Source of the DNA: Thraustochytrium aureum
Lineage: Eukaryota
Direction of reading: 5' to 3'
DNA: 47,512 nucleotides
Assembly (NCBI GenBank): GCA_012862495.1
Contig: BLSG01000006.1
Location: 1 to 47,512, forward strand
How positions within the stretch are numbered: the first letter of the stretch is position 1; every line of letters starts with the position of its first letter. This document shows positions 11,795 through 43,674 of this stretch, piece after piece. The translations under genes were made by a program, and so were the position numbers. The notes under the pieces are model-generated. The model saw only the letters and a list, made by a program, of their open reading frames with translations. It was not told the DNA's origin and ran no database searches.

Positions 11795-14700
11795 TCACAA
11801 GTTGGCCGTGGCCGCAGTGCCGCTTGTCGGCTCGTACTTTGCTAATGCGCGAAAGCGGTTGACGCCACCATCAGGAAACACCAAGAGGCGGAGCTGCGAC
11901 ACGCGGCGCGGCGCGGCGACGCCAAGGACCTTTGTGTTCCCCGCAAAGGCCTTCACGGCCGTCTCCGGCACAAGCGAAAACCACGACGAACCGACCTTGT
12001 CCAAGCCCTCAATCGCGACGGAACGCGGGTTGTTGTTGACGAAAAAGGTAAAGTCCAACTCGATACGGTCCACGACAGCCGGGACGCCAAGCTTGACAAC
12101 GAGCTCCTCACGGTGGCCCGCATCCCTACTGCGCGCCGATTCAAACCCATCGTGCATGCTGAGCGGAATGTATGGCGAGAACACTTGCGCAGCCGGCCCA
12201 TAGTGCTGGTTGGTGACGGAGACCAAGCTCGACCCAAACGCAAGCGAGGCAGCGTCAAAGCGCTGACCGGGTCGCAATCGCGAGAGGTTGTGTGCGACCT
12301 CTTCCGGAGAGGGCTCATAAAGGAGNNNNNNNNNNNNNNNNNNNNNNNNNNNNNNNNNNNNNNNNNNNNNNNNNNNNNNNNNNNNNNNNNNNNNNNNNNN
12401 NNNNNNNNNNNNNNNNNNNNNNNNNNNNNNNNNNNNNNNNNNNNNNNNNNNNNNNNNNNNNNNNNNNNNNNNNNNNNNNNNNNNNNNNNNNNNNNNNNNN
12501 NNNNNNNNNNNNNNNNNNNNNNNNNNNNNNNNNNNNNNNNNNNNNNNNNNNNNNNNNNNNNNNNNNNNNNNNNNNNNNNNNNNNNNNNNNNNNNNNNNNN
12601 NNNNNNNNNNNNNNNNNNNNNNNNNNNNNNNNNNNNNNNNNNNNNNNNNNNNNNNTGGAACGCGCTAAAAACGAGCGTCTTGTAACCGTAGTTGACAATC
12701 TCCTCTTGGGGGATGCTGTCGATGTCGACGGGGTCGTCAGGGAAGGCAGAGGTGTCGATGCCGTCAATGCGCAGCTCGCGAAGTACGGCCTGCATGGTCT
12801 CGGCGATGAAAAACATGGCACGGTTGTCCCCGTTGGCAAACATGACGAGGCCAGCCCCAGCGTCGGGGCCGTCAAAGCAGTGCAGGTAGACGCCGCGAAA
12901 CCCGTCGTTAGCGCCTTGGTGGACGGTGAACCGGTTCGGCCCCGCCTCGGCCACAAACACGCCGACGCCCATGAGGCACCCCATAAAGTCAAGGCAGCCC
13001 TTGTCTGTCCCATGGAGCATAAACGCAGCAGTGTCGTGCGAGATCGGGCCCGAACCCCCTGGGTCTTGGTACGCCTGGGCCAGGTGCTTGAGGAAGGCTA
13101 GCATGGCCGCAGGCGTTCCGAGCGCCCCGGCAGCAAAGCTGGGGAACATCTTGCGCGAGCCCTCCACTTCTGCGCCCATGTCATCGTACCCGTGCGCGAC
13201 GCGGAAGAGGCTCGGCGGCGGTTTGTGATCAAACGTGAGCCCTTGCGAAACGCCGAGCGCGTCCAGAAAGGGCTGTGTGACTTGGGCCACCGGGCGGCCC
13301 TCCAGCGATTCGATAAGGTACTCGAGGACCAAAAAGCCGCCCCCACTGTAGCGGAAAAACGTGCCTGGCTCGCCGAGGACCTCAATGGCTGGGTACCCGT
13401 ACTGGTCGTTTCCTTCCAGAAAGGCGTGTGCGGGTGGCATTTCGTGCGTGAGCGGCACGCCGTTCACATAGTGCATGTTTAGTGCGGCGTGGCTCATGAG
13501 GTGCCGCAGCTGAACCTTGTCGCCCCACCACGGGTGGCGAAGCCGAAACGCGCAGCCTGCTTCCTCGAGCAAGCTGTTGACGCTCGCCTCCGGGCCGACG
13601 CCGCGCGCTGCAAAGTACTCGAGGGCAAACGCAGAAGCGATCGTCTTGCTCAGCGAGGCGATCTCAAACAAGTCGCCCGGGGAAACAGCGCTCTCCCGGG
13701 ACTCCGCCTCGCCTCCTCGCACGCGGCGGCCCAGCGCAAGCGACTGTTCGTGGCCGTCCCGTGTGCTGATGCAGATCGACGCCCCAGTCACGTCGTGCTT
13801 GGCGAGCAGGGCCTCGACTTTGCCAACAAGGTTGTCTAGTGGCTCGGCACGGATCCGTTTGGCTGTGATTTGCCAGAGCGCCTCACGGGCGTTGTCCAGC
13901 TCTTGCTGGGGCGAGTTGGCAAGGCGCGACTTGAGAATCGCAAGCATCTCGGCGCCCGTCTTGCCTTGCGCCGAGACCAGAAACTTGAACCCGAACTTGT
14001 CAAGGTACTCTGCGCCGAGCGAGCGCAGCTCGGCGCGAACAGCCTCCAGGTCGACTTGTGCGCTAGCCTGCTCTGCTGTCGCAAGCTTGTCAAGCGAGGC
14101 GGCGCTTTGGCCGATGTCGCCGTGAAACCCGGCTGCAGCCTTGACCGCAGCGGCGTCAAACCCGCGAATTACGCGCTCCGCAAGGCCGAGATCTGTAGCT
14201 GTCGTCGATGCCATGGCACGCGCAAAGCTAATCTCGCCGCACCGCTCGAAAAAGTAGTGCAGGCGGCCTACATACGGAGCGAGCTCGAGCAGATCTGGAG
14301 CTGCAGTCGATAGGGCGGAGAGCGGGTCCTCTGCCGCGTGAACGGGGGGCCGGTGAAGGCGCTTAGGATGGTCTNNNNNNNNNNNNNNNNNNNNNNNNNN
14401 NNNNNNNNNNNNNNNNNNNNNNNNNNNNNNNNNNNNNNNNNNNNNNNNNNNNNNNNNNNNNNNNNNNNNNNNNNNNNNNNNNNNNNNNNNNNNNNNNNNN
14501 NNNNNNNNNNNNNNNNNNNNNNNNNNNNNNNNNNNNNNNNNNNNNNNNNNNNNNNNNNNNNNNNNNNNNNNNNNNNNNNNNNNNNNNNNNNNNNNNNNNN
14601 NNNNNNNNNNNNNNNNNNNNTTGAGAACGACCTGAAGCGCGACGGGGTACCAGCGCGCAGTGCGCGCCGTCCACTTGACCTGCACGACCTTGTTCTCGTT

Positions 14701-16479
14701 GGACATATCGCGGCGAATAAAGTTGAGCTCCTCGTGCGCGATGCGCACCAGGTCTTGAACTGGGAAGCGGCCGTGCCGAACCTCGTGCCAGACCTCCCAG
14801 CGAGAGCGCTCCACGGTGGCGAGGTCGTCCATGATTTGGACGGGCTCGCCGTCCACCGTCCCAGGCAGCGCGACGCAACCGTTGCCAGCTAGCCAGTCTG
14901 CCAGGTATTGCAGCGTCTGGAAGAGGTTGTACCGCACCTCCTCGGGGTCGTTGTTGGCCACCTGACTCGACTCCGGGACGTCCGCTACGACGAGGGCTTG
15001 CGGAAAGCCTGATGAGCCCGGGGATAAGCCCTCCAGATCTGGCCCCCATACAAAACGTAAGAGCTCGTTTTGGAGCGCCTCGCCGTTCACGAGGCCGCGC
15101 ACGAGCTGCTCCATTGCGCCGCGATCTCCGGCCTGCGCGCGCTTCCACGCGGCCACCAAGGCCATCCCAAGGCGCACAAAATCCGGGCGCGCGACCCAGA
15201 AGCCAACGAGGCCTCGCTTGAGTTGCGTGACCACGTCCCGCACAAATCCGCGCAGGGCAGCCTGGAAGGAGACAGAGCCGGGGTCGTCTGGGCGGGGCCC
15301 AGCTGGCAGCACGCCATACATGCCCCCGATTGCGAGTCCGCCGCGGCCACCCACAACTCGGGCGAGGAGCTCGTGCGAGGCCTTGACGTGCTTGATCACG
15401 ATTGTGGTGTCCGCCTTGACCGGAATCCGGTACGAGGCGTCCTCCTTGAGCAAGCGCGCCGTGCTGGCCAGGTAGTCGTGCCAGCCGAGCGACGCGCCGC
15501 AAAAGTAAGGGTGTAGCGCGTCCATAATCTCGTTGGCCCGAAAGATGGCCCGCGCATTCTCTAGAACGACAATGACCCGCACGGTGCCGAGCTGATACTC
15601 GGGGTGCGCGAGTTGGACGCGGCGCTCGCAGGCCCCAATCGCGCTGCGGAGGTAGGCGGCCTCCTCCTCGTTCTCAAGCTTGGGGAAATAAAACGTAAGG
15701 GCCTCGGCGTTGGCCCAGTGTGCGTACAAGTGCAGCGCGAGGTCGTATAGGTGCAGGGGTACAGGAGCGCCCTGATAGAGGCAAAACCCCGCCTCGAGGG
15801 CCAGGCCAGGCAGACGCTTAAATGGGTGTGCGAGCCGTGTGCCGGCGCCTTGGCTGCTTTGCTCGGCCCTGGTTTGGAAAGCTGATGCGAGGCGGGCGTT
15901 GGCGCTGGCAAACGTCTCGCGCAGCGGCGTCTGCGAGTCCTCCGCGTCCGCGCCCCACTTTGGCGCTGCACACTCGTCGACAAGCTCGCCAACAATTGGG
16001 GGCTCCCCTGGCAAGCGCGTGTCGATCGCGTACAACGCCTTCTTGCAGGCCTCCTCCGACTCTGCAAGACCAAAAACTGTAACGTGCTCACCGGCTAGGC
16101 TGGCGCTTAGGGGCGCAACTGGCGAGCCGGAGGGCACGGTGAACGTGCGGTCATCGTTGGGCCCCACCACGACTCTGCCCTCCGCGTCGCGCTGGCCGAA
16201 TACGCTGGCCCGGAAAGCGTCGCCCTTGCCTCTGCCCATCTTTGCGTTCAGCTCGCTCGTCGCGCGCACGCGTTGGTCCACAAACGCGCGGTCCTTGGCG
16301 CGCTGCGCCAGGACCTTGCGCAGTTCTCCGCAGACCTCGTCAAGAACGCGGCACATGAACGAGAGCGCATCCCTCGATTCTCCCGAGGCCGACCCGCCAA
16401 CCATAGCGAGCCCCTCAACGCCATCCACCTCCACGGCATCCTCGCGCATCAAGCGCACGACGCCAGCCGGGAGCCCCAT
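11795..16479 (-). CDS. Multidomain purine-catabolism fusion: malate synthase-like + OHCU decarboxylase + beta-lactamase-fold serine hydrolase + allantoicase (spans gaps 14375-14620 and 12326-12655)
   Basis: Malate synthase motifs: DAEDS, YFPKLE, GWHDYLAS, IGGM, WLAGNGCV, MDDLATVERSR. OHCU decarboxylase: FHGDIG, EQ, YLDKFGFKFLVSAQGK, RLANSPQQEL..ITAKRI. Serine hydrolase: SxxK (SLSK, 13645-13656), YSG, HQG. Allantoicase repeat: NQHYG, DGFESARSR, VVKLG, FVNNNP, FPDGGVNRFR. Ends ANL-stop. Confidence 0.85.
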
Positions 16480-18078
16480 CTCACGCGAGCGCGACCTCCC
16501 AACCTGCGCGCCAGAGTCTGCGCCTGCCGCGCCAGCCGTGCCAGCCGTGCCTGCTTTCCTGCCGCTCAAGCGCGCGTCTGAGCTGATCCGTGCCAGCCCA
16601 CGTTGCNNNNNNNNNNNNNNNNNNNNNNNNNNNNNNNNNNNNNNNNNNNNNNNNNNNNNNNNNNNNNNNNNNNNNNNNNNNNNNNNNNNNNNNNNNNNNN
16701 NNNNNNNNNNNNNNNNNNNNNNNNNNNNNNNNNNNNNNNNNNNNNNNNNNNNNNNNNNNNNNNNNNNNNNNNNNNNNNNNNNNNNNNNNNNNNNNNNNNN
16801 NNNNNNNNNNNNNNNNNNNNNNNNNNNNNNNNNNNNNNNNNNNNGAGTCAACTGCGATCGCAGCCTTCGGTCCGCTGCCGCTCCTCCCTCTGGCGTTCCC
16901 GCCGCGGGTTCCCACGTTCCCGGGAACTTCCTGACGTTCCCAAGCCGGTTTCCCCGACAGTAGCCATGTGGTAGGACCGGTTACGGGCGACAGAGGGGCG
17001 GGCCCTGGGCCCGGACGGGAACGCTTCTTGGAGGGAACCCGCTAGAGGGCGGTAGAGGAAGCGTTCCGCAGAGAAAGGGCCCGGCGCCGCCCCAAGTCGT
17101 AGGCGATAATTCGACGACTTTTCGCCCTTTATGGACGCTGCTGTGTGGCAAGGCTCTGCGGGCGCTTCCCATTCGTGGCGGCGAAAGCGGCCTGCGGCGG
17201 CTCGCGGCGGCTCGGCACGATGCAGCAGTTGGTGTTCTGGAGGCCAATTGATGGTCTGTTCTCACGGGAGCCGGCGCCTGCTCGTCGGGCTGCTTGCCAC
17301 TGCTCGCGCCAAGTCACGCACGCACGCACGCACGCATGCACATTCCCGAGTTGTTGTAGAGTGTCCTGCTCGCGGTCCGAAACGTCGATGTTTTGCTGAG
17401 CGCGCGCGACTCGACTGCTCGCTTATCGCCGCCGCATTGCTCTCGAGCTTAGGTCTACTAGAGAGCTCTGTCGCCGTCGTCGACTTGCTCGCCGCGACGT
17501 CGTCGGCTTGCCCCGTCAAGTTGTCCTCTTGCCGCCGAGCTGGCAGAGCCAGGCCCTGCTGCTCGTCTGTCTTGCCCGGTCGAGAATGCGAGGTCGTGGG
17601 ACGCGTCGCCAGAGCTTCCCTTCGTGTCTGTCGTTCCCGGCCAGCGGAGGGATTGATTGACCTTCAAGTTCGGGTTGAGTAAGTACAGTTAGACGAGCTT
17701 GGCTGGCTGCAGGTGTGGCTCGAGGGCCCTGGGAGGCCTCCCCGCCCGACGAGGAACAGAAACGCAGCCACCTGCCAGGATTCTCCACGGCGACCGCCGC
17801 CGCCCTCACGGGAAAGAGGAAGGTGGCAGGCCGTGTCCGCCCCGCGACGGCTTCATCGCTTCCGCAGCAGCATTGCCGCAGCAGCATTGCAAGTGAAATG
17901 GTTCAAATGGAGCAAGTACTCTACTTAGCTGGTGATTCGATTGATCGATCGATCGATCAGAGCCCAACTCGCGGCAAGCACGGCAAGCTCGGTGGACCGC
18001 GCACGCGAACCAAGACACGCTTGCTAGCGCGACGGCGGCTGCTGCCGGCTCGGGGAAGGAAGTGCGCCAGTTCGAGCC

Positions 18079-19399
18079 ATGTTCGACCTGGACGTGGTGA
18101 TCGTGGGCGGAGGGATCGCGGGCATGACGCTGGGACTGTTCCTGAAGCGCGAAGGATACAAGACGCACGTGTACGAGCGTGCTGAGAAGATCCTCCCCGT
18201 TGGCGCCGCTATCTCGGTGTGGAGCAATGGGGTCAAGGTGATGAACCGGCTTGGCCTCGGCAAAGAGATGATCAAGCTTGGCGGGCAGATGGACCGCATG
18301 ATTTACAAGTCGCACAAGGACGAGCCGCTGGTCAACATGGACCTCAACCCGGTGTACAAGGACGTGGGGGAGCGCGCGTACCCCGTCCCGCGCGGCGCCT
18401 TGCAGCAGATGCTGATGGACAAGTACGTCGAAGCTGGTGGCGACCTCACGTTGGGCCGCATTTGTGTCGACATCGAGCTCGAGGAGCCCAGCAACCCAGA
18501 TAGCCGCACGCGCGCCGTGTTTGATGACGGCTCGCGGTCCAAGTGGTGCGACCTCTTGGTCGGCGCTGACGGCATCCGCTCGCGAGTGCGCGAATACGTG
18601 CTCCAGCGCGAGACCCCGGTGGTGTNNNNNNNNNNNNNNNNNNNNNNNNNNNNNNNNNNNNNNNNNNNNNNNNNNNNNNNNNNNNNNNNNNNNNNNNNNN
18701 NNNNNNNNNNNNNNNNNNNNNNNNNNNNNNNNNNNNNNNNNNNNNNNNNNNNNNNNNNNNNNNNNCCCCGATCTGGGCGTCTCGAACGAGTGGATCATGT
18801 ACGTCGGCGAAGGCAAGCGCGCATCACTTATGCCTGTCGGGGACGGTCGCTTCTACTTTTTCATGGGCGCGCCGCTCAAGGAAGACGCCCCTGTGCCCGA
18901 GCGGGGCTCGGAGGCGATGCGCGACGAGCTCAAGGAAATCTTCAAGGGCTGGCCCGTGCAGGTGCAGCGCTTGATCGCATCGATCAACCTGTCGGGCCTC
19001 AACCGCATCCCGATTTGCGATCACGACCCGCTCCCGCTGTACGCGCGGGGAAAGGTGGTCATCATTGGCGACGCCGCACACGCGACTACACCGACGCTGG
19101 GGCAGGGCGGCTGCCAGGCGATGGAGGACGCCGAGGTGCTCGGCTCATTCTTGACGACGACCAACGTTGGCGTCCGCGACGCGCTGCGGCGCTATGAACA
19201 GCACCGCAAGGATCGAGTGCACAACATGGTGCTCAAGGCCAGGGAGCGCACGGCCACCATTTACCCTCAGAACCCGGAGGAGTGGAAGGGCACGGAGAGG
19301 TGGTACGAGGAGCTGGCCACGTCTGAAGACGTTGGGAAAAATATCTTGGCCGGCATCACGGCCAACCTGCACCAGGGGCCCTGGCCGCCGCGTCTCTAG
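18079..19399 (+). CDS. hpxO: FAD-dependent urate hydroxylase (HpxO family); spans gap 18626-18765
   Basis: GGGIAG, 'PVGAAISVWSNGVK', GADGIRS, 'VGEGKRASLMPV..GRFYFF', 'GDAAHATTPTLGQGGCQAMEDA', 'VLKARER', 'TERWYEEL'. These are collinear with Klebsiella HpxO as recalled. Ends PRL-stop. Confidence 0.9.
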
Positions 19400-22643: not shown

Positions 22644-23537
22644 ATGTCCACGTCGCAGCCGGCCCCGGCGCCGAGCATGGTGCTGCCAGTGCCGGCAGGA
22701 GGCAAGCTGCACAACAGATTCGTGCAAGTCGACCTGGGGGACAGGTGCGTGCTGAGCCTGGACGACAGCGAGTTCGAGGCCAAGGTCGCAAGTAAGATCT
22801 GGGAGCATGGGATAATTTGCGTCAAGAAGCAGGACCTGAGCCCCGAGCAGCTCAAGCAGTTGGCGCAGCGCATCGGTGAGCCCACGCTGCTCCCTCCAGC
22901 GTTCTCGTTCGAGAACCGGGACCCCGAGCACCCCGAAATCGTGCGCATCGGCAACATCCTGGCGGATGGCACCGTCAAGTCGGGCGTCAACGCGGCCGAG
23001 TACTGGCACCATGACGGCAACTTTTGGGGCGTGCCCGGGTTCCAGCTGGTCAACCTCCTGCACGCCAAGATTATCCCGCCTGTCGGCGGCAACACCGGCT
23101 TCATGGACTCGACCCTCGCGCTGCACGAGCACTTTGACGCCACGCTCAAGCGCCGCCTGGAGCACTCTACCACTCTTGTGTCATGCCGGTGGATCAGCGA
23201 CTTTAAAAACGCCAAGCCGGAGGACATGCTGCCTGACGTGACGCTCCCCTGCACGCCGACACACCCCAAGACTGGCAAGGAGTGCCTGTACCTGCCGTTC
23301 ACGCCCAAGGGGCTCTATGACTACGAGGCCGATGAGCACTGGCGCCCCAACGACCAGATTTGGGCCGACATTGTCGCTGCCGGGTACACGTACGAGCACA
23401 AGTACGAGGCGGGCGACATCCTGCTCTGGGACAACCTGCAGGTAATGCACCGCTCTCTTGGCGGCTACGGTGACCACCCGCGCCTGCTCTTCCGCGCGCA
23501 GGCCCGGTATCTGCAGCCCAGCGCAGCCAAGCTCTGA
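22644..23537 (+). CDS. TauD/TfdA-family 2-oxoglutarate/Fe(II) dioxygenase (candidate xanthine dioxygenase)
   Basis: WHHDG (HxD), GGNTGFMD, HPKTGK..LY, H.YEAGDILLWDN.QVMHR, RLLFR; ends AKL-stop. Family is solid; substrate is inferred from context. Confidence 0.85.
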   Translation: MSTSQPAPAPSMVLPVPAGGKLHNRFVQVDLGDRCVLSLDDSEFEAKVASKIWEHGIICVKKQDLSPEQLKQLAQRIGEPTLLPPAFSFENRDPEHPEIVRIGNILADGTVKSGVNAAEYWHHDGNFWGVPGFQLVNLLHAKIIPPVGGNTGFMDSTLALHEHFDATLKRRLEHSTTLVSCRWISDFKNAKPEDMLPDVTLPCTPTHPKTGKECLYLPFTPKGLYDYEADEHWRPNDQIWADIVAAGYTYEHKYEAGDILLWDNLQVMHRSLGGYGDHPRLLFRAQARYLQPSAAKL

Positions 23538-27878: not shown

Positions 27879-28802
27879 CTTGCCCGACCTCCACAAAGAT
27901 GCCCAAATCGGATCCCTGCGTCACTGCCCGAGTCCTTCCCAGAGACGCTCGCTCGCAGGCACGCTCGCAGGTACGCTCGCAGGCACGCAGGCAGGCAGGC
28001 AGGCAGGCAGGCAAGCTCGCTGGCTCCCCCAGCAGGAGCCGCAGACCAGTTGGGCGACTGGTGTCGGCGCGGGGTTTTGGGGCAGGCAAGCCCAAGACCA
28101 GCTCAAGAGGCAGGTATACNNNNNNNNNNNNNNNNNNNNNNNNNNNNNNNNNNNNNNNNNNNNNNNNNNNNNNNNNNNNNNNNNNNNNNNNNNNNNNNNN
28201 NNNNNNNNNNNNNNNNNNNNNNNNNNNNNNNNNNNNNNNNNNNNNNNNNNNNNNNNNNNNNNNNNNNNNNNNNNNNNNNNNNNNNNNNNNNNNNNNNNNN
28301 NNNNNNNNNNNNNNNNNNNNNNNNNNNNNNNNNNNNNNNNNNNNNNNNNNNNNNNNNNNNNNNNNNNNNNNNNNNNNNNNNNNNNNNNNNNNNNNNNNNN
28401 NNNNNNNNNNNNNNNNNNNNNNNNNNNNNNNNNNNNNNNNNNNNNNNNNNNNNNNNNNNNNNNNNNNNNNNNNNNNNNNNNNNNNNNNNNNNNNNNNNNN
28501 NNNNNNNNNNNNNNNNNNNNNNNNNNNNNNNNNNNNNNNNNNNNNNNNNNNNNNNNNNNNNNNNNNNNNNNNNNNNNNNNNNNNNNNNNNNNNNNNNNNN
28601 NNNNNNNNNNNNNNNNNNNNNNNNNNNNNNNNNNNNNNNNNNNNNNNNNNNNNNNNNNNNNNNNNNNNNNNNNNNNNNNNNNNNNNNNNNNNNNNNNNNN
28701 NNNNNNNNNNNNNNNNNNNNNNNNNNNNNNNNNNNNNNNNNNNNNNNNNNNNNNNNNNNNNNNNNNNNNNNNNNNNNNNNNNNNNNNNNNNNNNNNNNNN
28801 NN

Positions 28803-29683
28803 CGAACTAGAGCGAGAAACGGCAGAATGCCGGTCACCTTGCGGAACGTCCCGCTCGCGGCGCCAACGGCGTCCCTGTACGTCTTGCGCATCGAGATGCT
28901 ACGCTGCTTGGCCGCGTGGAGGTCGCGGATTGCTGCAATCTCGCTCCGCTCGCCGTTGTAGAATGCAATCGACTCGGCGTTCTCGCGAACACGCGTGAGC
29001 GCGTAGCGAAAGTTGTTGGAGGCGTCTCGTTCACGCTGGTAGAGCGCTGGGAGCCGCTGGCCGATGAGGACCGTGCCCAGCGTCCCCGCGATGGCGAGCG
29101 AGACAGTGCTCTGTGACAGCCACGGCGAGGCCCGCCACAAAACCCGCGCGAAGAACACGAGGTGGATTCCTGCTTGCGCCATCTCTAGGCTCAGATCTAG
29201 GAAAAGGTCAACAAACTTGTCCACGTCTTCGGCTACGCGCTGGTCCAGATTGGACTTGCCGTCGTCGTCCGTGCGACCGGCGCTTGTCTCGCCCTGCACG
29301 CCGGAGGCACGGCCCAGCGCCACTTTGAGGTACCCGTCGAGGAGTGCGTCTGTCAAGCTCTTTGACCAGGCTTGCTTGAGCTCGCGGAGCACCCATTGAT
29401 AAACAGTGTCGAGCGGCGCGAGCATCACTAGAAATGCAACCTTCGTGGCCGCTGACCGCCACAGTCGCCGTGTGCGCCCGGCGTCTGGGCCGTCGGTGAG
29501 GGCGGAAAGTGTGCCCCTCGAGCAATCCGAAAGCAGCGTTGCAGCTTTCCCCTTGGCCACTTGGAGTGCGAGTACCGCTGCGAGCCAGGTCCAAGCCGTC
29601 GAGTTGCCCTTGGCGCCCCAGTACAGTCGCGCGAGTCTCACCGCGCCAGCCCAGCCAGGCGACAACGTGCTCACGACCTCCAT
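28803..29683 (-). CDS. ABC transporter subfamily D (ABC_membrane_2) transmembrane part; remainder in gap 28120-28802
   Basis: W...LT..LL..Y, NLDQRVAEDV, FRYALTRVRENAESIAFYNGE..E (EAA motif); nucleotide-binding domain not visible. Confidence 0.85.
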
Positions 29684-33706: not shown

Positions 33707-35901
33707 CTACAGCCGTCTTTGTCGTTTGACAGTCTGATCTCTTCCTACGAAGAACGAGTTGATCGTGCCCGACGCCGCAGGCTGTGTGCGCGAGGGGTCG
33801 TTCCTAGCCCGCCCACTTTGGCGCGCAGCGCTCTCTATGACCGGCGATGCGCTCTGGCCCTCGTCGATTGTGCCCGGTGCCCCAGACTGTATGCGCGAGG
33901 ACTCGCTCCCACCTCGACCACTGCTATGTGCAACGCTCTCTATGACCGACGCGTTCAGACACTCGTCGACGTGCGCGTTGAGCTCGGCGTTGCTTGCCCC
34001 AGGCAATTTCGCGTTACACACTGGGCACACCATGCACGGGTCGCAGCTTTGCGCCGCGCCTGCGCCGTCGACAGCGCTTCGCGGCCCGCGCTGGCCTGGC
34101 CCAGGGGAAATCGCCTCGCGGGCCCTTGCTGCCCCGACCGCGCGGGGCAGACGCACTTGGGCCCGCCGTACAAGCGGGCGGCGTGCTGTCGACGCATGGC
34201 TCGTCGCTGCCTCCTGTGCTGCCGCTGCTTCCTGCCCCGGACTGTTCGCGAGCGCGAATCGTGCGCTGGCTTTGGTCGCGGGACGACTGCTGCGCAAAGA
34301 GGCTCTCGATACGGGCCTGCCACTCGCGCGGCCTTGATGGCGAGCGAGTTTCTTTGTCAGCTGGCGCGTCGTGCGCTGCCGACGACGCACCGTCGTCGAG
34401 GTGGCTCAGGCGCACGCCCATGAGACGCAATGTACAGGGGAGCTCCTTTACCAAGAGCGGGTGGGCGAGTCGGAATAGCTCGTCGCCGGACGGCTCGCAC
34501 GGCAATGCGGTGCTGAAGGTGATCTGGCGCTGCCGGACGTGAAAGTCGTTCGTCTTGAGCTTGAGGGTAAAGCAGCGACCTCGAATCCCTTTCTTCACGC
34601 AGTCTTGAGCCAGCTTTCTGCAGAGGTCCTGGCACATGTCTGAAAGCTCTGCAATGTTGCCCTTGTCCCTGAAGGTCCTCTCGAGGGAGATCGACTTGCG
34701 GGAGCGCGGGTTCGACTCGAACGGCACCGCGCTTGACTCCCTATCCTCGGTGCAGCACAGGCACACGCGCAGGAACCAGTCTGCGGACCGGGGCTTGAAG
34801 AGGAACGAGCAGAGGGCGCGGTTGCGCCACAGGTCGCCGACGTTTTGCACGTTCAGCGAGTCGGAGAGCAGCTTCTCTGTGACCTTGCCAATGCCTGGCA
34901 CCTTGCGGATCGGCTGAGAGTTCGAGCGAGGCCGAGTCGCCGCCCGCGCCGTTAGCTGTCTAGGCCCCGGTGCTGCCCTGGCAGCCACGCAAGCGCCTGC
35001 TGTGCGCGAGTCAGAGAAAACTTACGAGTTCGTGGACAAATGCTCGCATCGCAGATTTGGTCGCCGGAACCATGTGCTGCCCGTTCGGTTTGTTCATGTC
35101 GCTCGCTATCTTTGCAATCATCTTGGTCGCGGCGATCCCCGCAGAGCAGGTGAGCCGCGTCTTGTTCGACACGCGGCGGCGCATCTCCTGCACGGCTGCG
35201 AAAGCAAACTGCATCCGCTCCTCCGTAGTGCGGTCAGTGCCGAACTCTCTGTCGACGAAGGGGGTCAGGTCCATGTAAGCCTCGTCGATGGACCCGCTCA
35301 GATTGGGGTCATACTGGCGCAGCACTTGGCGCACCTCCTCGCTGGCGGCGCGGTACTTGGCAAAGCTGCCGCTCCCGCCGACGAAAACCAGTTCTGGGCA
35401 CAGCTTTTTGGCGATGAAGCCAGGCATTGCGGACCGGACGCCGTACCTGCGCGCCTCGTAGTTGGCTGTGGAGATCATGCCGATGCCGCCCACTGCCACC
35501 GGTTTGCCGATCAGGCTCGGGTCGTCGCGCATCTCAACGGCCGCAAAAAACATGTCCATGTCCACCACGACAAAAATGCGGTCGAGTCGCAAGCTCGCGT
35601 CGAGGTCCTCTGCCTTGTTGTCGGCGCGAACGCGGTGGGCCTCGAGCACCGCTGGGCGCGCAAGGGCCAGTTTCTCCTTCATGGCCTTGACGCGCGCCTG
35701 CGTCTTGGCGTCCTGCCGCTGCGCGTTCTTGAAGAAGCTGGAGTCTTTGCTCATGTCGTAGATGACCTGGTTCACTTTGGCTTTGTCGACCTGGGTCATC
35801 CCGGCCTTCTCGTTGGCGAACACAAACAGATGCGCGAATTCGGACCCGGACCCATCTTCGCCAGCGAGCGCCTCTGCATCGCTTGGCCTTGGCTGCTCCA
35901 T
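33707..35901 (-). CDS. POLK: DNA polymerase kappa (DinB/Y family) with C-terminal UBZ4 zinc finger; one intron and one apparent frameshift near 34150
   Basis: KAGM N-clasp, VDMDMFFAAVE, STANYEAR.YGVRSAMPGFIAKKLCP, SIDEAY, AKIASDMNKPNGQ, PIRKVPGIGKV, RKSISLERTF, LRLMGVR, CPVC...LNAHVDECL. Confidence 0.92.
34914..35025 (-). other. Spliceosomal intron in Pol kappa
   Basis: GTAAGT donor, GCTAAC branch site, CTCTCAG acceptor on the minus strand; joins FVHEL|PIRKVPG. Confidence 0.9.
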
Positions 35902-41920: not shown

Positions 41921-41937
41921 TTGAGCTCTTGCGCACG

Positions 41938-43674
41938 ATGAGGGCTTCTGCCAGCGGCGCGAGCTCGACTACGAGCGGCACGGCAACGGCCGCCGCGCAG
42001 GAGGACGCCGAGGTCGGCGGCGCCGTGCCCTCGCTGCCGAATGCGTTCGCGGCGGCGGCGTGGGTCTCGTCGTTTCGCGACGCCGTCGGACTGGAGCTCG
42101 GCGCGCTCCACGTGGGCACGGAACGGGTGCAAGCCTACTCGGACGCCGTGCTGAGCATCGCGGCGACGCTGCTCGCCGTGCCGCTGCTCAAGGTGAACGA
42201 GGCGGCGAAGAAAGAGATTCTGGTCACTGGCGGGTCGCTGTTCGACGTGCTCACCTCGCCGTTCAGGCTGCAGGCGTTCGCGCGGTACTGGGTATCGTTC
42301 TGGTTTGTGTTTCTCGTGTTTGTTTGGAACGGGCGCGGGTTTCGGGGCATGGAGAGCGCCAACATCTTTTTGGTTCTTGCGAACTGGCTCGAGCTCCTGG
42401 CCACCAGCCTTCTGCCGTTCACCTCCGCGAGCGCGGCAAACGCCGACTCGGCGTCGGGCGGCCAGGGCGACGCCAGGGCATCGGTGGTGCGCCAACTTTA
42501 CGCCAACGTGCTGCTGATCACGATGGCGCACCTGGCGTTTCAGGGGCTCGCCACGTGGACGCACCGAATGTGGTTTTCGCGCCTCTATCTGGCGGAGGCC
42601 GGCGTGTTGTTCCTCATCTCGGTGGTGGCGCTCGCGGCGAGCTACGCCAACGTCGACCTCGCGATACTCTTGTACCTCCTCATGCCAGTCGTCTTGGGCG
42701 TGTTCAGCCGCAAGTTTGCCAACCTCAAGGCATCGCGTCTGGCAGACGCACGGCACGCCGCGCTGGCGCAGCAAAACTCGTCAACGCCGCCGTGTGGCCG
42801 CCACTCGCAGGACTCGCAACTCAGTGCCCCGCTGCTGGAGGGCGGCCGGGAGGACGACGCGCAGCTCTCGCCGGCGAGCCCCTCCGTCGTGGGTTCGCTT
42901 GAGCAGGAGGCCGCTCGCGAAGCTGCCGCGTTTGCGCAATTTAAAAAGCGCCTCGAGGCCTTCACAGACGGCGTTTTGGCCATCTCGGCGACGCTCATCG
43001 TGCTTGAAATCCAGCCCGTCCCGGCCTGCAAAGACTTGAACAACCTGGAAGACTGCGTGCTCCATTGGAGCGACGGGTGCAGGCCGGATCTGGACCTCAG
43101 CCAGCTCCAGTTCAGGTGCAGTTTTGACGAGGACGAGTCGCAGAGCAAGCGCAAGTGGCAGATGCTCACGTACGCGGGCTCGTTCGTGATCATCAACCTG
43201 TTGTGGACTCTGCACCACATCCTCTTCGACACGATCATTCGGCCAGAGGCGGCCTGGGACATGTGGACACGACTGCTGAACGGCCACTTTTGCATCTTTG
43301 TGTCCCTGCTGCCGAGCGCGCTCAACTTGGTAACTGACTACGCAATTGAGCCGGTGACCAAGCACAAGGTCAAGCCGTTCCAGCCCAAGGGGGGCATCGA
43401 CCCGGATGAGCAAGCTGCCGCTACGGCCTGTGCGTTCGCCGGCCTCGTCCTCTTCTTCGCTTCAGCGTGCCTGCTTGGCGCACTGGTGCACCATCAGTGG
43501 CGGGCGGCGCGCAAGATCCAGCCTCGCGATTGGCTGCGCTTCGCCATTGTGCCCTTCATCTCGCTGCTTGTTGTCGTCCTGGCCAGCACCGGCGTGAACA
43601 AGGTCGCGCTCTGGCCCTTGTTCGGAATCCCAGCGGCCTTTTTGGCCGTGCGCCTCGGCCTTGGCGGCGATTGA
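41938..43674 (+). CDS. TMEM175-like endolysosomal K+/H+ channel (two-repeat form)
   Basis: Two RxxxFSD-type helices, RVQAYSDAVLSIAATLL and RLEAFTDGVLAISATLIVLEI, each followed by several TM segments. Confidence 0.85.
   Translation: MRASASGASSTTSGTATAAAQEDAEVGGAVPSLPNAFAAAAWVSSFRDAVGLELGALHVGTERVQAYSDAVLSIAATLLAVPLLKVNEAAKKEILVTGGSLFDVLTSPFRLQAFARYWVSFWFVFLVFVWNGRGFRGMESANIFLVLANWLELLATSLLPFTSASAANADSASGGQGDARASVVRQLYANVLLITMAHLAFQGLATWTHRMWFSRLYLAEAGVLFLISVVALAASYANVDLAILLYLLMPVVLGVFSRKFANLKASRLADARHAALAQQNSSTPPCGRHSQDSQLSAPLLEGGREDDAQLSPASPSVVGSLEQEAAREAAAFAQFKKRLEAFTDGVLAISATLIVLEIQPVPACKDLNNLEDCVLHWSDGCRPDLDLSQLQFRCSFDEDESQSKRKWQMLTYAGSFVIINLLWTLHHILFDTIIRPEAAWDMWTRLLNGHFCIFVSLLPSALNLVTDYAIEPVTKHKVKPFQPKGGIDPDEQAAATACAFAGLVLFFASACLLGALVHHQWRAARKIQPRDWLRFAIVPFISLLVVVLASTGVNKVALWPLFGIPAAFLAVRLGLGGD

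Follow-up and report, generated by a model that had tools for sequence, protein, structure and literature searches.

Which enzyme opens the ring of allantoin where OHCU decarboxylase and allantoicase are joined to a serine hydrolase and no known allantoinase lies nearby? This question is raised by a minus-strand gene in a 47,512-nucleotide stretch of the Thraustochytrium aureum assembly (GCA_012862495.1, contig BLSG01000006.1, positions 1 to 47,512), referred to here as the window. An earlier note on this DNA had proposed that the serine hydrolase, a domain of the beta-lactamase fold, is itself the missing allantoinase. The comparisons of sequences and genomes described below support this proposal, and we put the probability at about 85% that the domain is a metal-free serine-acyl allantoinase, a third class unrelated to the two known ones.

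Gene organisation

The whole gene (11795..16479, minus strand) likely encodes one four-domain protein consisting of a malate-synthase-like part, OHCU decarboxylase, the beta-lactamase fold and two allantoicase repeats, and the same order is found within one chain in relatives P0001, P0004, P0008, P0016 and P0117. Its probable ATG (16477-16479) was placed by alignment with P0004, and the open reading frame closes with a TGA (11795-11797). Two N runs interrupt the gene and leave three open pieces on the minus strand, of which 14623-16605 encodes the TIM barrel and the C-terminal domain of a malate synthase type and 11798-12325 a single allantoicase repeat. The middle piece, 12658-14373, is a single N-free open frame in which the OHCU decarboxylase (UraD) domain (13852..14184; Pfam PF09349, residues 64-174, 80 bits against a cut-off of 24) is followed after about 10 residues, without a gap, by the Pfam Beta-lactamase match (PF00144, residues 185-524, 69 bits, 12802-13821). 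The direct, gapless fusion described in the earlier note is thus borne out, the more so as contigs of two public runs bridge the junction (X1 record 13738-14303, X2 record 13775-14061). The hydrolase had been placed at 12700..13840; its position in the fusion stands, whereas its extent does not, as the conserved domain reaches at least to 12658, past 12700 (12658..13839, from the Pfam match, fold model and conservation).

The domain had further been described as lying upstream of allantoicase in one protein. This holds for the single chains of relatives, whereas in the window 330 N (12326-12655) and a one-base frame shift intervene. The N run covers the hydrolase-allantoicase join and allantoicase repeat 1, and stands where the relative from Hondaea has about 206 residues, that repeat included. 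Given the frame shift and the missing sequence, it has the look of a scaffold gap whose length is not exact, and the relatives suggest that hydrolase and allantoicase are joined across it in one chain in this organism as well. Allantoicase repeat 2 follows at 11837..12235 (Pfam PF03561, 79 bits; 66% identity to P0004 1422-1589). Hondaea fermentalgiana is the closest named relative of the window protein, at 61%, among the matches listed. The other N run (14375-14620) separates the decarboxylase from the malate-synthase-like part, with both flanks in the same frame. Across it lies a fourth domain that the earlier note did not include, namely a malate-synthase-A-like domain and candidate ureidoglycolate lyase (14623..16479; Pfam TIM barrel 15160-15807, MS_C 14722-14943).

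The other genes of the window mark it as eukaryotic; they include exostosin, TMEM175, CFAP97, RING and peroxisomal-type ABC domains. Neighbours on the plus strand are an FAD monooxygenase (18079-19399), a TauD dioxygenase (22644-23537) and a TMEM175 channel (41929-43674); on the minus strand there are a peroxisomal-type ABC transporter (28103-29683) and a Y-family polymerase in two frames (34014-35901). A scan of 49 window ORFs found no other purine gene and no canonical allantoinase, in agreement with the earlier statement that neither AllB/DAL1 nor PuuE is visible in the window.

Fold, motifs and conservation of the hydrolase domain

The hydrolase carries the motifs of the PF00144 superfamily intact, as had been reported, and their codons have been located on the minus strand. 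SLSK (13645..13656) aligns with the class C SxxK, which places the nucleophilic serine at the TCG codon 13654-13656, the very codon named in the earlier note, and the lysine at 13645-13647. YSG (13342..13350, Tyr 13348-13350), which supplies the Yxx general base, stands in the class C YxN place, opposite YSN when a class C beta-lactamase is aligned to the domain. HQG (12913..12921, His 12919-12921) stands in the KTG/HxG place as the K/H-x-G triad, as a weak match to HGG in D-aminopeptidase 1EI5 (E 0.003) suggests. In addition, the family alignment defines an MHYV motif, whose His-Tyr (13468..13473) are predicted substrate-pocket residues.

Structure prediction, one of the checks that had been proposed, gave an AlphaFold2 model with a pLDDT of 95.9 and a pTM of 0.94, which falls into the PBP/class C fold (esterase IS11 being matched with a VIA Z of 36.2 and an rmsd of 2.9 over 345 residues). 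Together with a Pfam score of 69 bits against a cut-off of 27, this places the domain in PF00144. Narrower identities were considered and rejected. A class C beta-lactamase (NF033085) is ruled out by a score of 22 bits against 415 and by YSG and HQG in place of YxN and KTG. As for the known allantoinases, NCBIfam scans gave no match of the domain to AllB/DAL1 (TIGR03178), and its modelled fold is that of PBPs; likewise there was no match to PuuE (TIGR03212), to which a different fold is assigned. A query of the ESM Atlas with the domain returned generic beta-lactamase clusters only.

Conservation was examined in 245 family members covering the domain, with ten low-scoring generic hydrolases kept out of that count and used as the outgroup. 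The SxxK lysine, the YSG tyrosine and the HQG histidine are present in all 245 and the SxxK serine in 244, while the third place of HQG is G in 148 and A in 97. The MHYV histidine is kept in 243 and its tyrosine in 242; the latter is found in none of the ten sister hydrolases, and the near-invariant Tyr124, Phe285, Met286, Val382 and Asn383 (domain numbering) are absent from them too. A quick tree sets the family apart from six of the sister hydrolases by a starred branch. One hydrolase-allantoicase fusion ending in SKL (P0307) has an Ala in place of the catalytic serine, its motifs are degenerate, and its hydrolase is likely a dead domain.

Fusion to other purine enzymes

Among longer proteins, 574 relatives were matched, and in the best 120 of these OHCU decarboxylase and allantoicase occur together in 116 and one of the two in the other 4. 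All ten relatives scanned have the order decarboxylase, hydrolase, allantoicase, in most cases with the malate-synthase-like part in front. A 1940-residue relative (P0010) has a uricase added at the N-terminus, which brings the chain to five pathway enzymes. In a protein from the dinoflagellate Polykrikos kofoidii (P0265) the hydrolase domain is followed by an AllA lyase scoring 114 bits and by an allantoicase of canonical type scoring 275 bits, and the chain ends in SKL. This transcriptome record nests among stand-alone copies in the tree and hence likely represents a second, independent fusion of the hydrolase to purine enzymes. The idea that domain order mirrors reaction order does not fit these proteins, as the candidate for the last step is N-terminal in the window protein and P0265 runs hydrolase-lyase-allantoicase. 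Related divergent fusions on record for the copepod Oithona nana and for Amoebophrya (P0278/P0365 and P0283) are sisters in the tree, and the Oithona nana record may stem from a parasite.

Bacterial loci and the missing allantoinase

A genome scan with the single window protein gave no confirmed locus; with alignment A1 as the query, 218 loci were confirmed, of which the best 80 were kept and examined. A metagenome scan for the family gave 192 loci, of which 80 were kept. In the 80 genome loci, 73 of the 81 hydrolase ORFs carry all three partner domains; of the other eight, six come from short contigs and two are the pieces of a single split gene. HIU hydrolase was found in 44, urate oxidase in 43 and xanthine dehydrogenase in 21 of the 45 loci of at least 15 kb. 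Together with the fused partners, these genes account for the steps from xanthine to allantoin and for those after allantoate, so that the allantoinase is what is missing there. That the domain replaces HIU hydrolase was rejected, since 66 of the 80 loci have a separate gene for that enzyme close by.

Several of these loci have features of their own. In many of them the operon opens with a gene for a Urate_ox_N (PuuD-type) protein (for example L036:5567-7210), which is about 545 residues long and has a carboxypeptidase-regulatory-like domain at its C-terminus. In two MAGs the fusion is split, inside the hydrolase at L067:7544-12148 and inside the malate-synthase-like part at L019:7493-12301, by either a sequencing error or a real break.

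The earlier note had asked whether genomes with this domain lack allB and puuE, and in the bacteria searched they do. Neither AllB nor PuuE was found over its cut-off in any of the 50 genomes searched out of the 80 domain-bearing ones, in searches whose controls were positive in 3 and 1 of 14 known genomes. These 50 genomes gave 68 AllB-like matches above 110 bits, 67 of which were placed in a tree, none with the 15 true AllB proteins. Nine of the matches received a best NCBIfam assignment of dihydroorotase (six) or dihydropyrimidinase (three), and, save for two long branches (L289 and L311), the matches are dihydroorotase-like or dihydropyrimidinase-like.

In an even sample of 201 genomes of Bdellovibrionota, the phylum of G024, UraD was found in 46, the beta-lactamase-fold domain in 26, AllB in 20 and PuuE in none. 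The 26 domain genomes and the 20 AllB genomes do not overlap, and together they are exactly the 46 UraD genomes. A naive Fisher test of this exclusion, which ignores kinship, gives p 2e-13. On a quick rpoB tree of the 46 genomes the state changes six times, five of them forced by starred branches; the five independent contrasts all point in the predicted direction, with a sign test p of 0.0625, five being too few to pass p 0.05. Similarly, 14 of 201 genomes of Phycisphaerae, the class of G009, have UraD, and these comprise 13 with AllB and without a family member and one, the seed genome, with the domain and without AllB. In this class AllB and PuuE were searched for in the 14 UraD genomes, and two matches from genomes without UraD, G349 (131 bits) and G402 (110 bits), were left out as sister hydrolases, family scores being 322-516. 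Most genomes in these counts are MAGs, so absence here means not found in those searched, and the evidence of exclusion covers bacteria. Within that scope it argues for the domain as the probable allantoinase. The exclusion holds between whole modules, and is thus confounded with the other swaps that distinguish them.

Assigning the remaining steps

Those swaps can be followed slot by slot. Eight AllB-type loci were sampled. Their allB, alc and uraD genes lie next to one another, and nearby are uraH, in most cases a urate oxidase gene, and either DUF6986 or AllA. For every part of the fusion there is therefore a counterpart in AllB-type loci, which pairs AllB with the beta-lactamase-fold domain. 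Among the Bdellovibrionota, 19 of the 20 AllB genomes have DUF6986 and the twentieth has AllA, while neither was found in any of the 26 fusion genomes. The modules thus differ in two slots, those of allantoinase and ureidoglycolate lyase, and two domains of the fusion await a role; since the lyase role fits the malate-synthase-like domain, the hydrolase is left for allantoin. In AllB-type urate operons DUF6986 (PF22484) follows uraH (for example L128:12071-13474), and it is a candidate for their undescribed ureidoglycolate lyase.

The malate-synthase-like domain likely splits ureidoglycolate into glyoxylate and urea. In E. coli malate synthase numbering, derived from the 3CUZ alignment, it keeps the equivalents of R166, E250, D278, W365 and D447, residues with catalytic roles in malate synthase A, while R276 is replaced by W and W277 by H. 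It is distant from malate synthase A (TIGR01344), with 99.9 bits on the N-free piece against 594.5 and GWHDY for GRWDY, and of the two substitutions, at Arg276 and Trp365, that together with loss of the acetyl-CoA site mark the UGL group, it has the one at Arg276 and retains Trp365. Malate-synthase-like proteins have been shown to be ureidoglycolate lyases, with zebrafish DrMSL as the example, which is likewise homologous to malate synthase A, is linked to allantoicase and has Arg276 replaced (PMC10120013). The window domain differs from DrMSL in having Trp rather than Ile at that place, in keeping Trp365 and in the insertion before the D447 motif, which is 8 residues long. A GPP..K..INA.N segment of malate synthase A recurs in the majority of 108 full-length relatives, bacterial copies among them; in the window's domain and its closest relatives it is altered or lost, perhaps as a further step from synthase to lyase.

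The assignment of the two slots bears on the alternative that ureidoglycolate or allantoate, rather than allantoin, is the ureide on which the hydrolase acts, while something else opens allantoin. The allantoicase of the fusion has diverged, scoring about 140-170 bits on Pfam where those of AllB-type loci reach 320-349, and the malate-synthase-like domain, with its catalytic residues kept, could be a true malate synthase, which in genomes without AllA or DUF6986 would leave the lyase slot open. Against this, a separate canonical malate synthase is present in G024 and G038, lyases of the malate-synthase-like kind are on record, and in P0265 the hydrolase sits beside an AllA lyase and an allantoicase of canonical type. 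The alternative would also leave the fusion genomes, both the 50 and the 26, without a recognised allantoinase. We therefore consider it improbable, including the variant raised in the earlier note, in which the domain acts on ureidoglycolate; that variant is weakened as other domains (malate-synthase-like, DUF6986 or AllA) fill the lyase slot.

Slightly less probable still is that a dihydroorotase or dihydropyrimidinase moonlights as the allantoinase and that the domain handles (R)-allantoin or a decay product of HIU or OHCU. Some amidohydrolase match exists in 48 of the 50 fusion genomes, and in G037 a dihydropyrimidinase lies about 5 kb from the fusion. Furthermore, 22 fusion genomes have a divergent amidohydrolase clade that scores below all NCBIfam cut-offs (L188:2524-3783 and 21 similar); a close orthologue was found in G094 and not in three AllB-type genomes. 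This clade, unlike the 15 AllB controls, all of which have HxNEPGR, has HxHxR as dihydroorotases do, its Arg being what we take as the dihydroorotase mark, and in 20 of the 22 genomes no other dihydroorotase-type match was found. The motif and the alternation with other dihydroorotases indicate that the clade is most likely the dihydroorotase of these genomes. AllB-type genomes, moreover, retain AllB despite having such amidohydrolases, and the HIU step is already occupied by its separate neighbouring hydrolase.

Least probable is that the fusion carries the domain as a passenger, an esterase or peptidase whose function lies outside purine metabolism: the fold is promiscuous and its nearest solved structures, at 14-22% identity, are esterases, a D-amino acid amidase and a DD-peptidase, but the fusion is kept across bacteria and eukaryotes with near-invariant catalytic residues, a second fusion to purine enzymes exists in another order (P0265), and the 155 Bdellovibrionota genomes without UraD, out of 201, yielded no family member.

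Proposed mechanism and relation to known enzymes

If the domain is an allantoinase, its fold suggests how it could work. The SxxK serine would attack the C4 carbonyl of the hydantoin ring of (S)-allantoin, with the lysine and the YSG tyrosine shuttling protons; the ring would open as an allantoyl-serine ester, from which water would free allantoate. The residues Tyr124, Phe285-Met286, Gln308 and Val382-Asn383, which are specific to the family, would hold the ureido group. Within the fusion the decarboxylase would supply (S)-allantoin to the hydrolase, and allantoicase would turn the allantoate into ureidoglycolate and urea. There is a parallel in another fold, as a Ser-Lys dyad is described to open the cyclic amide of a ureide-like heterocycle in cyanuric acid hydrolase and barbiturase (PMC4051656), which are unrelated to the beta-lactamase-fold domain in fold and substrate.

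The closest structural comparisons are with AmpC, R61 DD-peptidase, D-amino acid amidase, esterase IS11, ClbP and LACTB, which share the fold (Z 31-36, rmsd about 3), the SxxK serine, the Yxx tyrosine and an HxG-type triad. The domain departs from these class C/PBP-like hydrolases in its low identity, in having YSG for YxN and HQG or HQA for KTG, in its own MHYV motif and C-terminal extension, and in being fused to cytosolic or peroxisomal enzymes. PuuE has a polysaccharide-deacetylase-like fold. Like the domain it likely performs the same reaction without a metal, and PuuE/HpxB (TIGR03212) is a precedent for non-homologous replacement, though it was found in none of the 201 and none of the 50 genomes searched. 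AllB/DAL1 likely shares the reaction and the slot between UraD and allantoicase, and alternates with the domain across genomes, but it is a TIM-barrel metalloenzyme with a carbamylated lysine (PMC13751858) and has no sequence match to the domain. That 2026 review names two types of allantoinase, metal-dependent and metal-independent, and does not contain the word 'lactamase'. Among the papers listed by full-text searches of the open literature, none deals with this fusion, with an allantoinase of the beta-lactamase fold or with DUF6986.

The proposed activity would be a new reaction for the beta-lactamase fold and would fill a pathway gap in bacteria without a visible allantoinase. Several hundred proteins now named 'serine hydrolase', 'CubicO peptidase' or 'malate synthase' would have to be re-annotated, and the result would bear on purine nitrogen recovery in haptophytes, pelagophytes, chlorarachniophytes, dinoflagellates and thraustochytrids. 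With a stand-alone enzyme of 390-430 residues, a defined serine and a standard assay, the proposal is cheap to test.

Stand-alone copies and peroxisomal signals

We lean, with distinctly less confidence, towards a broader reading in which the third allantoinase class serves both many marine protists, as a stand-alone and often peroxisomal enzyme, and predatory bacteria, where a single chain would lead from OHCU to glyoxylate by way of the malate-synthase-like lyase, DUF6986 being the matching lyase of AllB-type operons. An allantoinase has been reported for Guillardia theta and Nephromyces (PMC9244630, PMC6320678), and the enzymes of urate catabolism in Guillardia theta are described as bearing peroxisomal signals (PMC9244630). 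A second search of ours gave 132 proteins of near-domain length, many of them complete and stand-alone, with named copies from Prymnesium, Amorphochlora, Aureococcus and Effrenium. An ending of the form [SAC][KRH][LM] was found in 29 of 83 stand-alone-length copies, against 0.3% expected by composition; three named algal copies (P0131, P0134 and P0224) are without a PTS1. The C-terminus of the window protein is ANL, which can serve as a weak PTS1, and its close relatives end in AKL, SNL or ANI.
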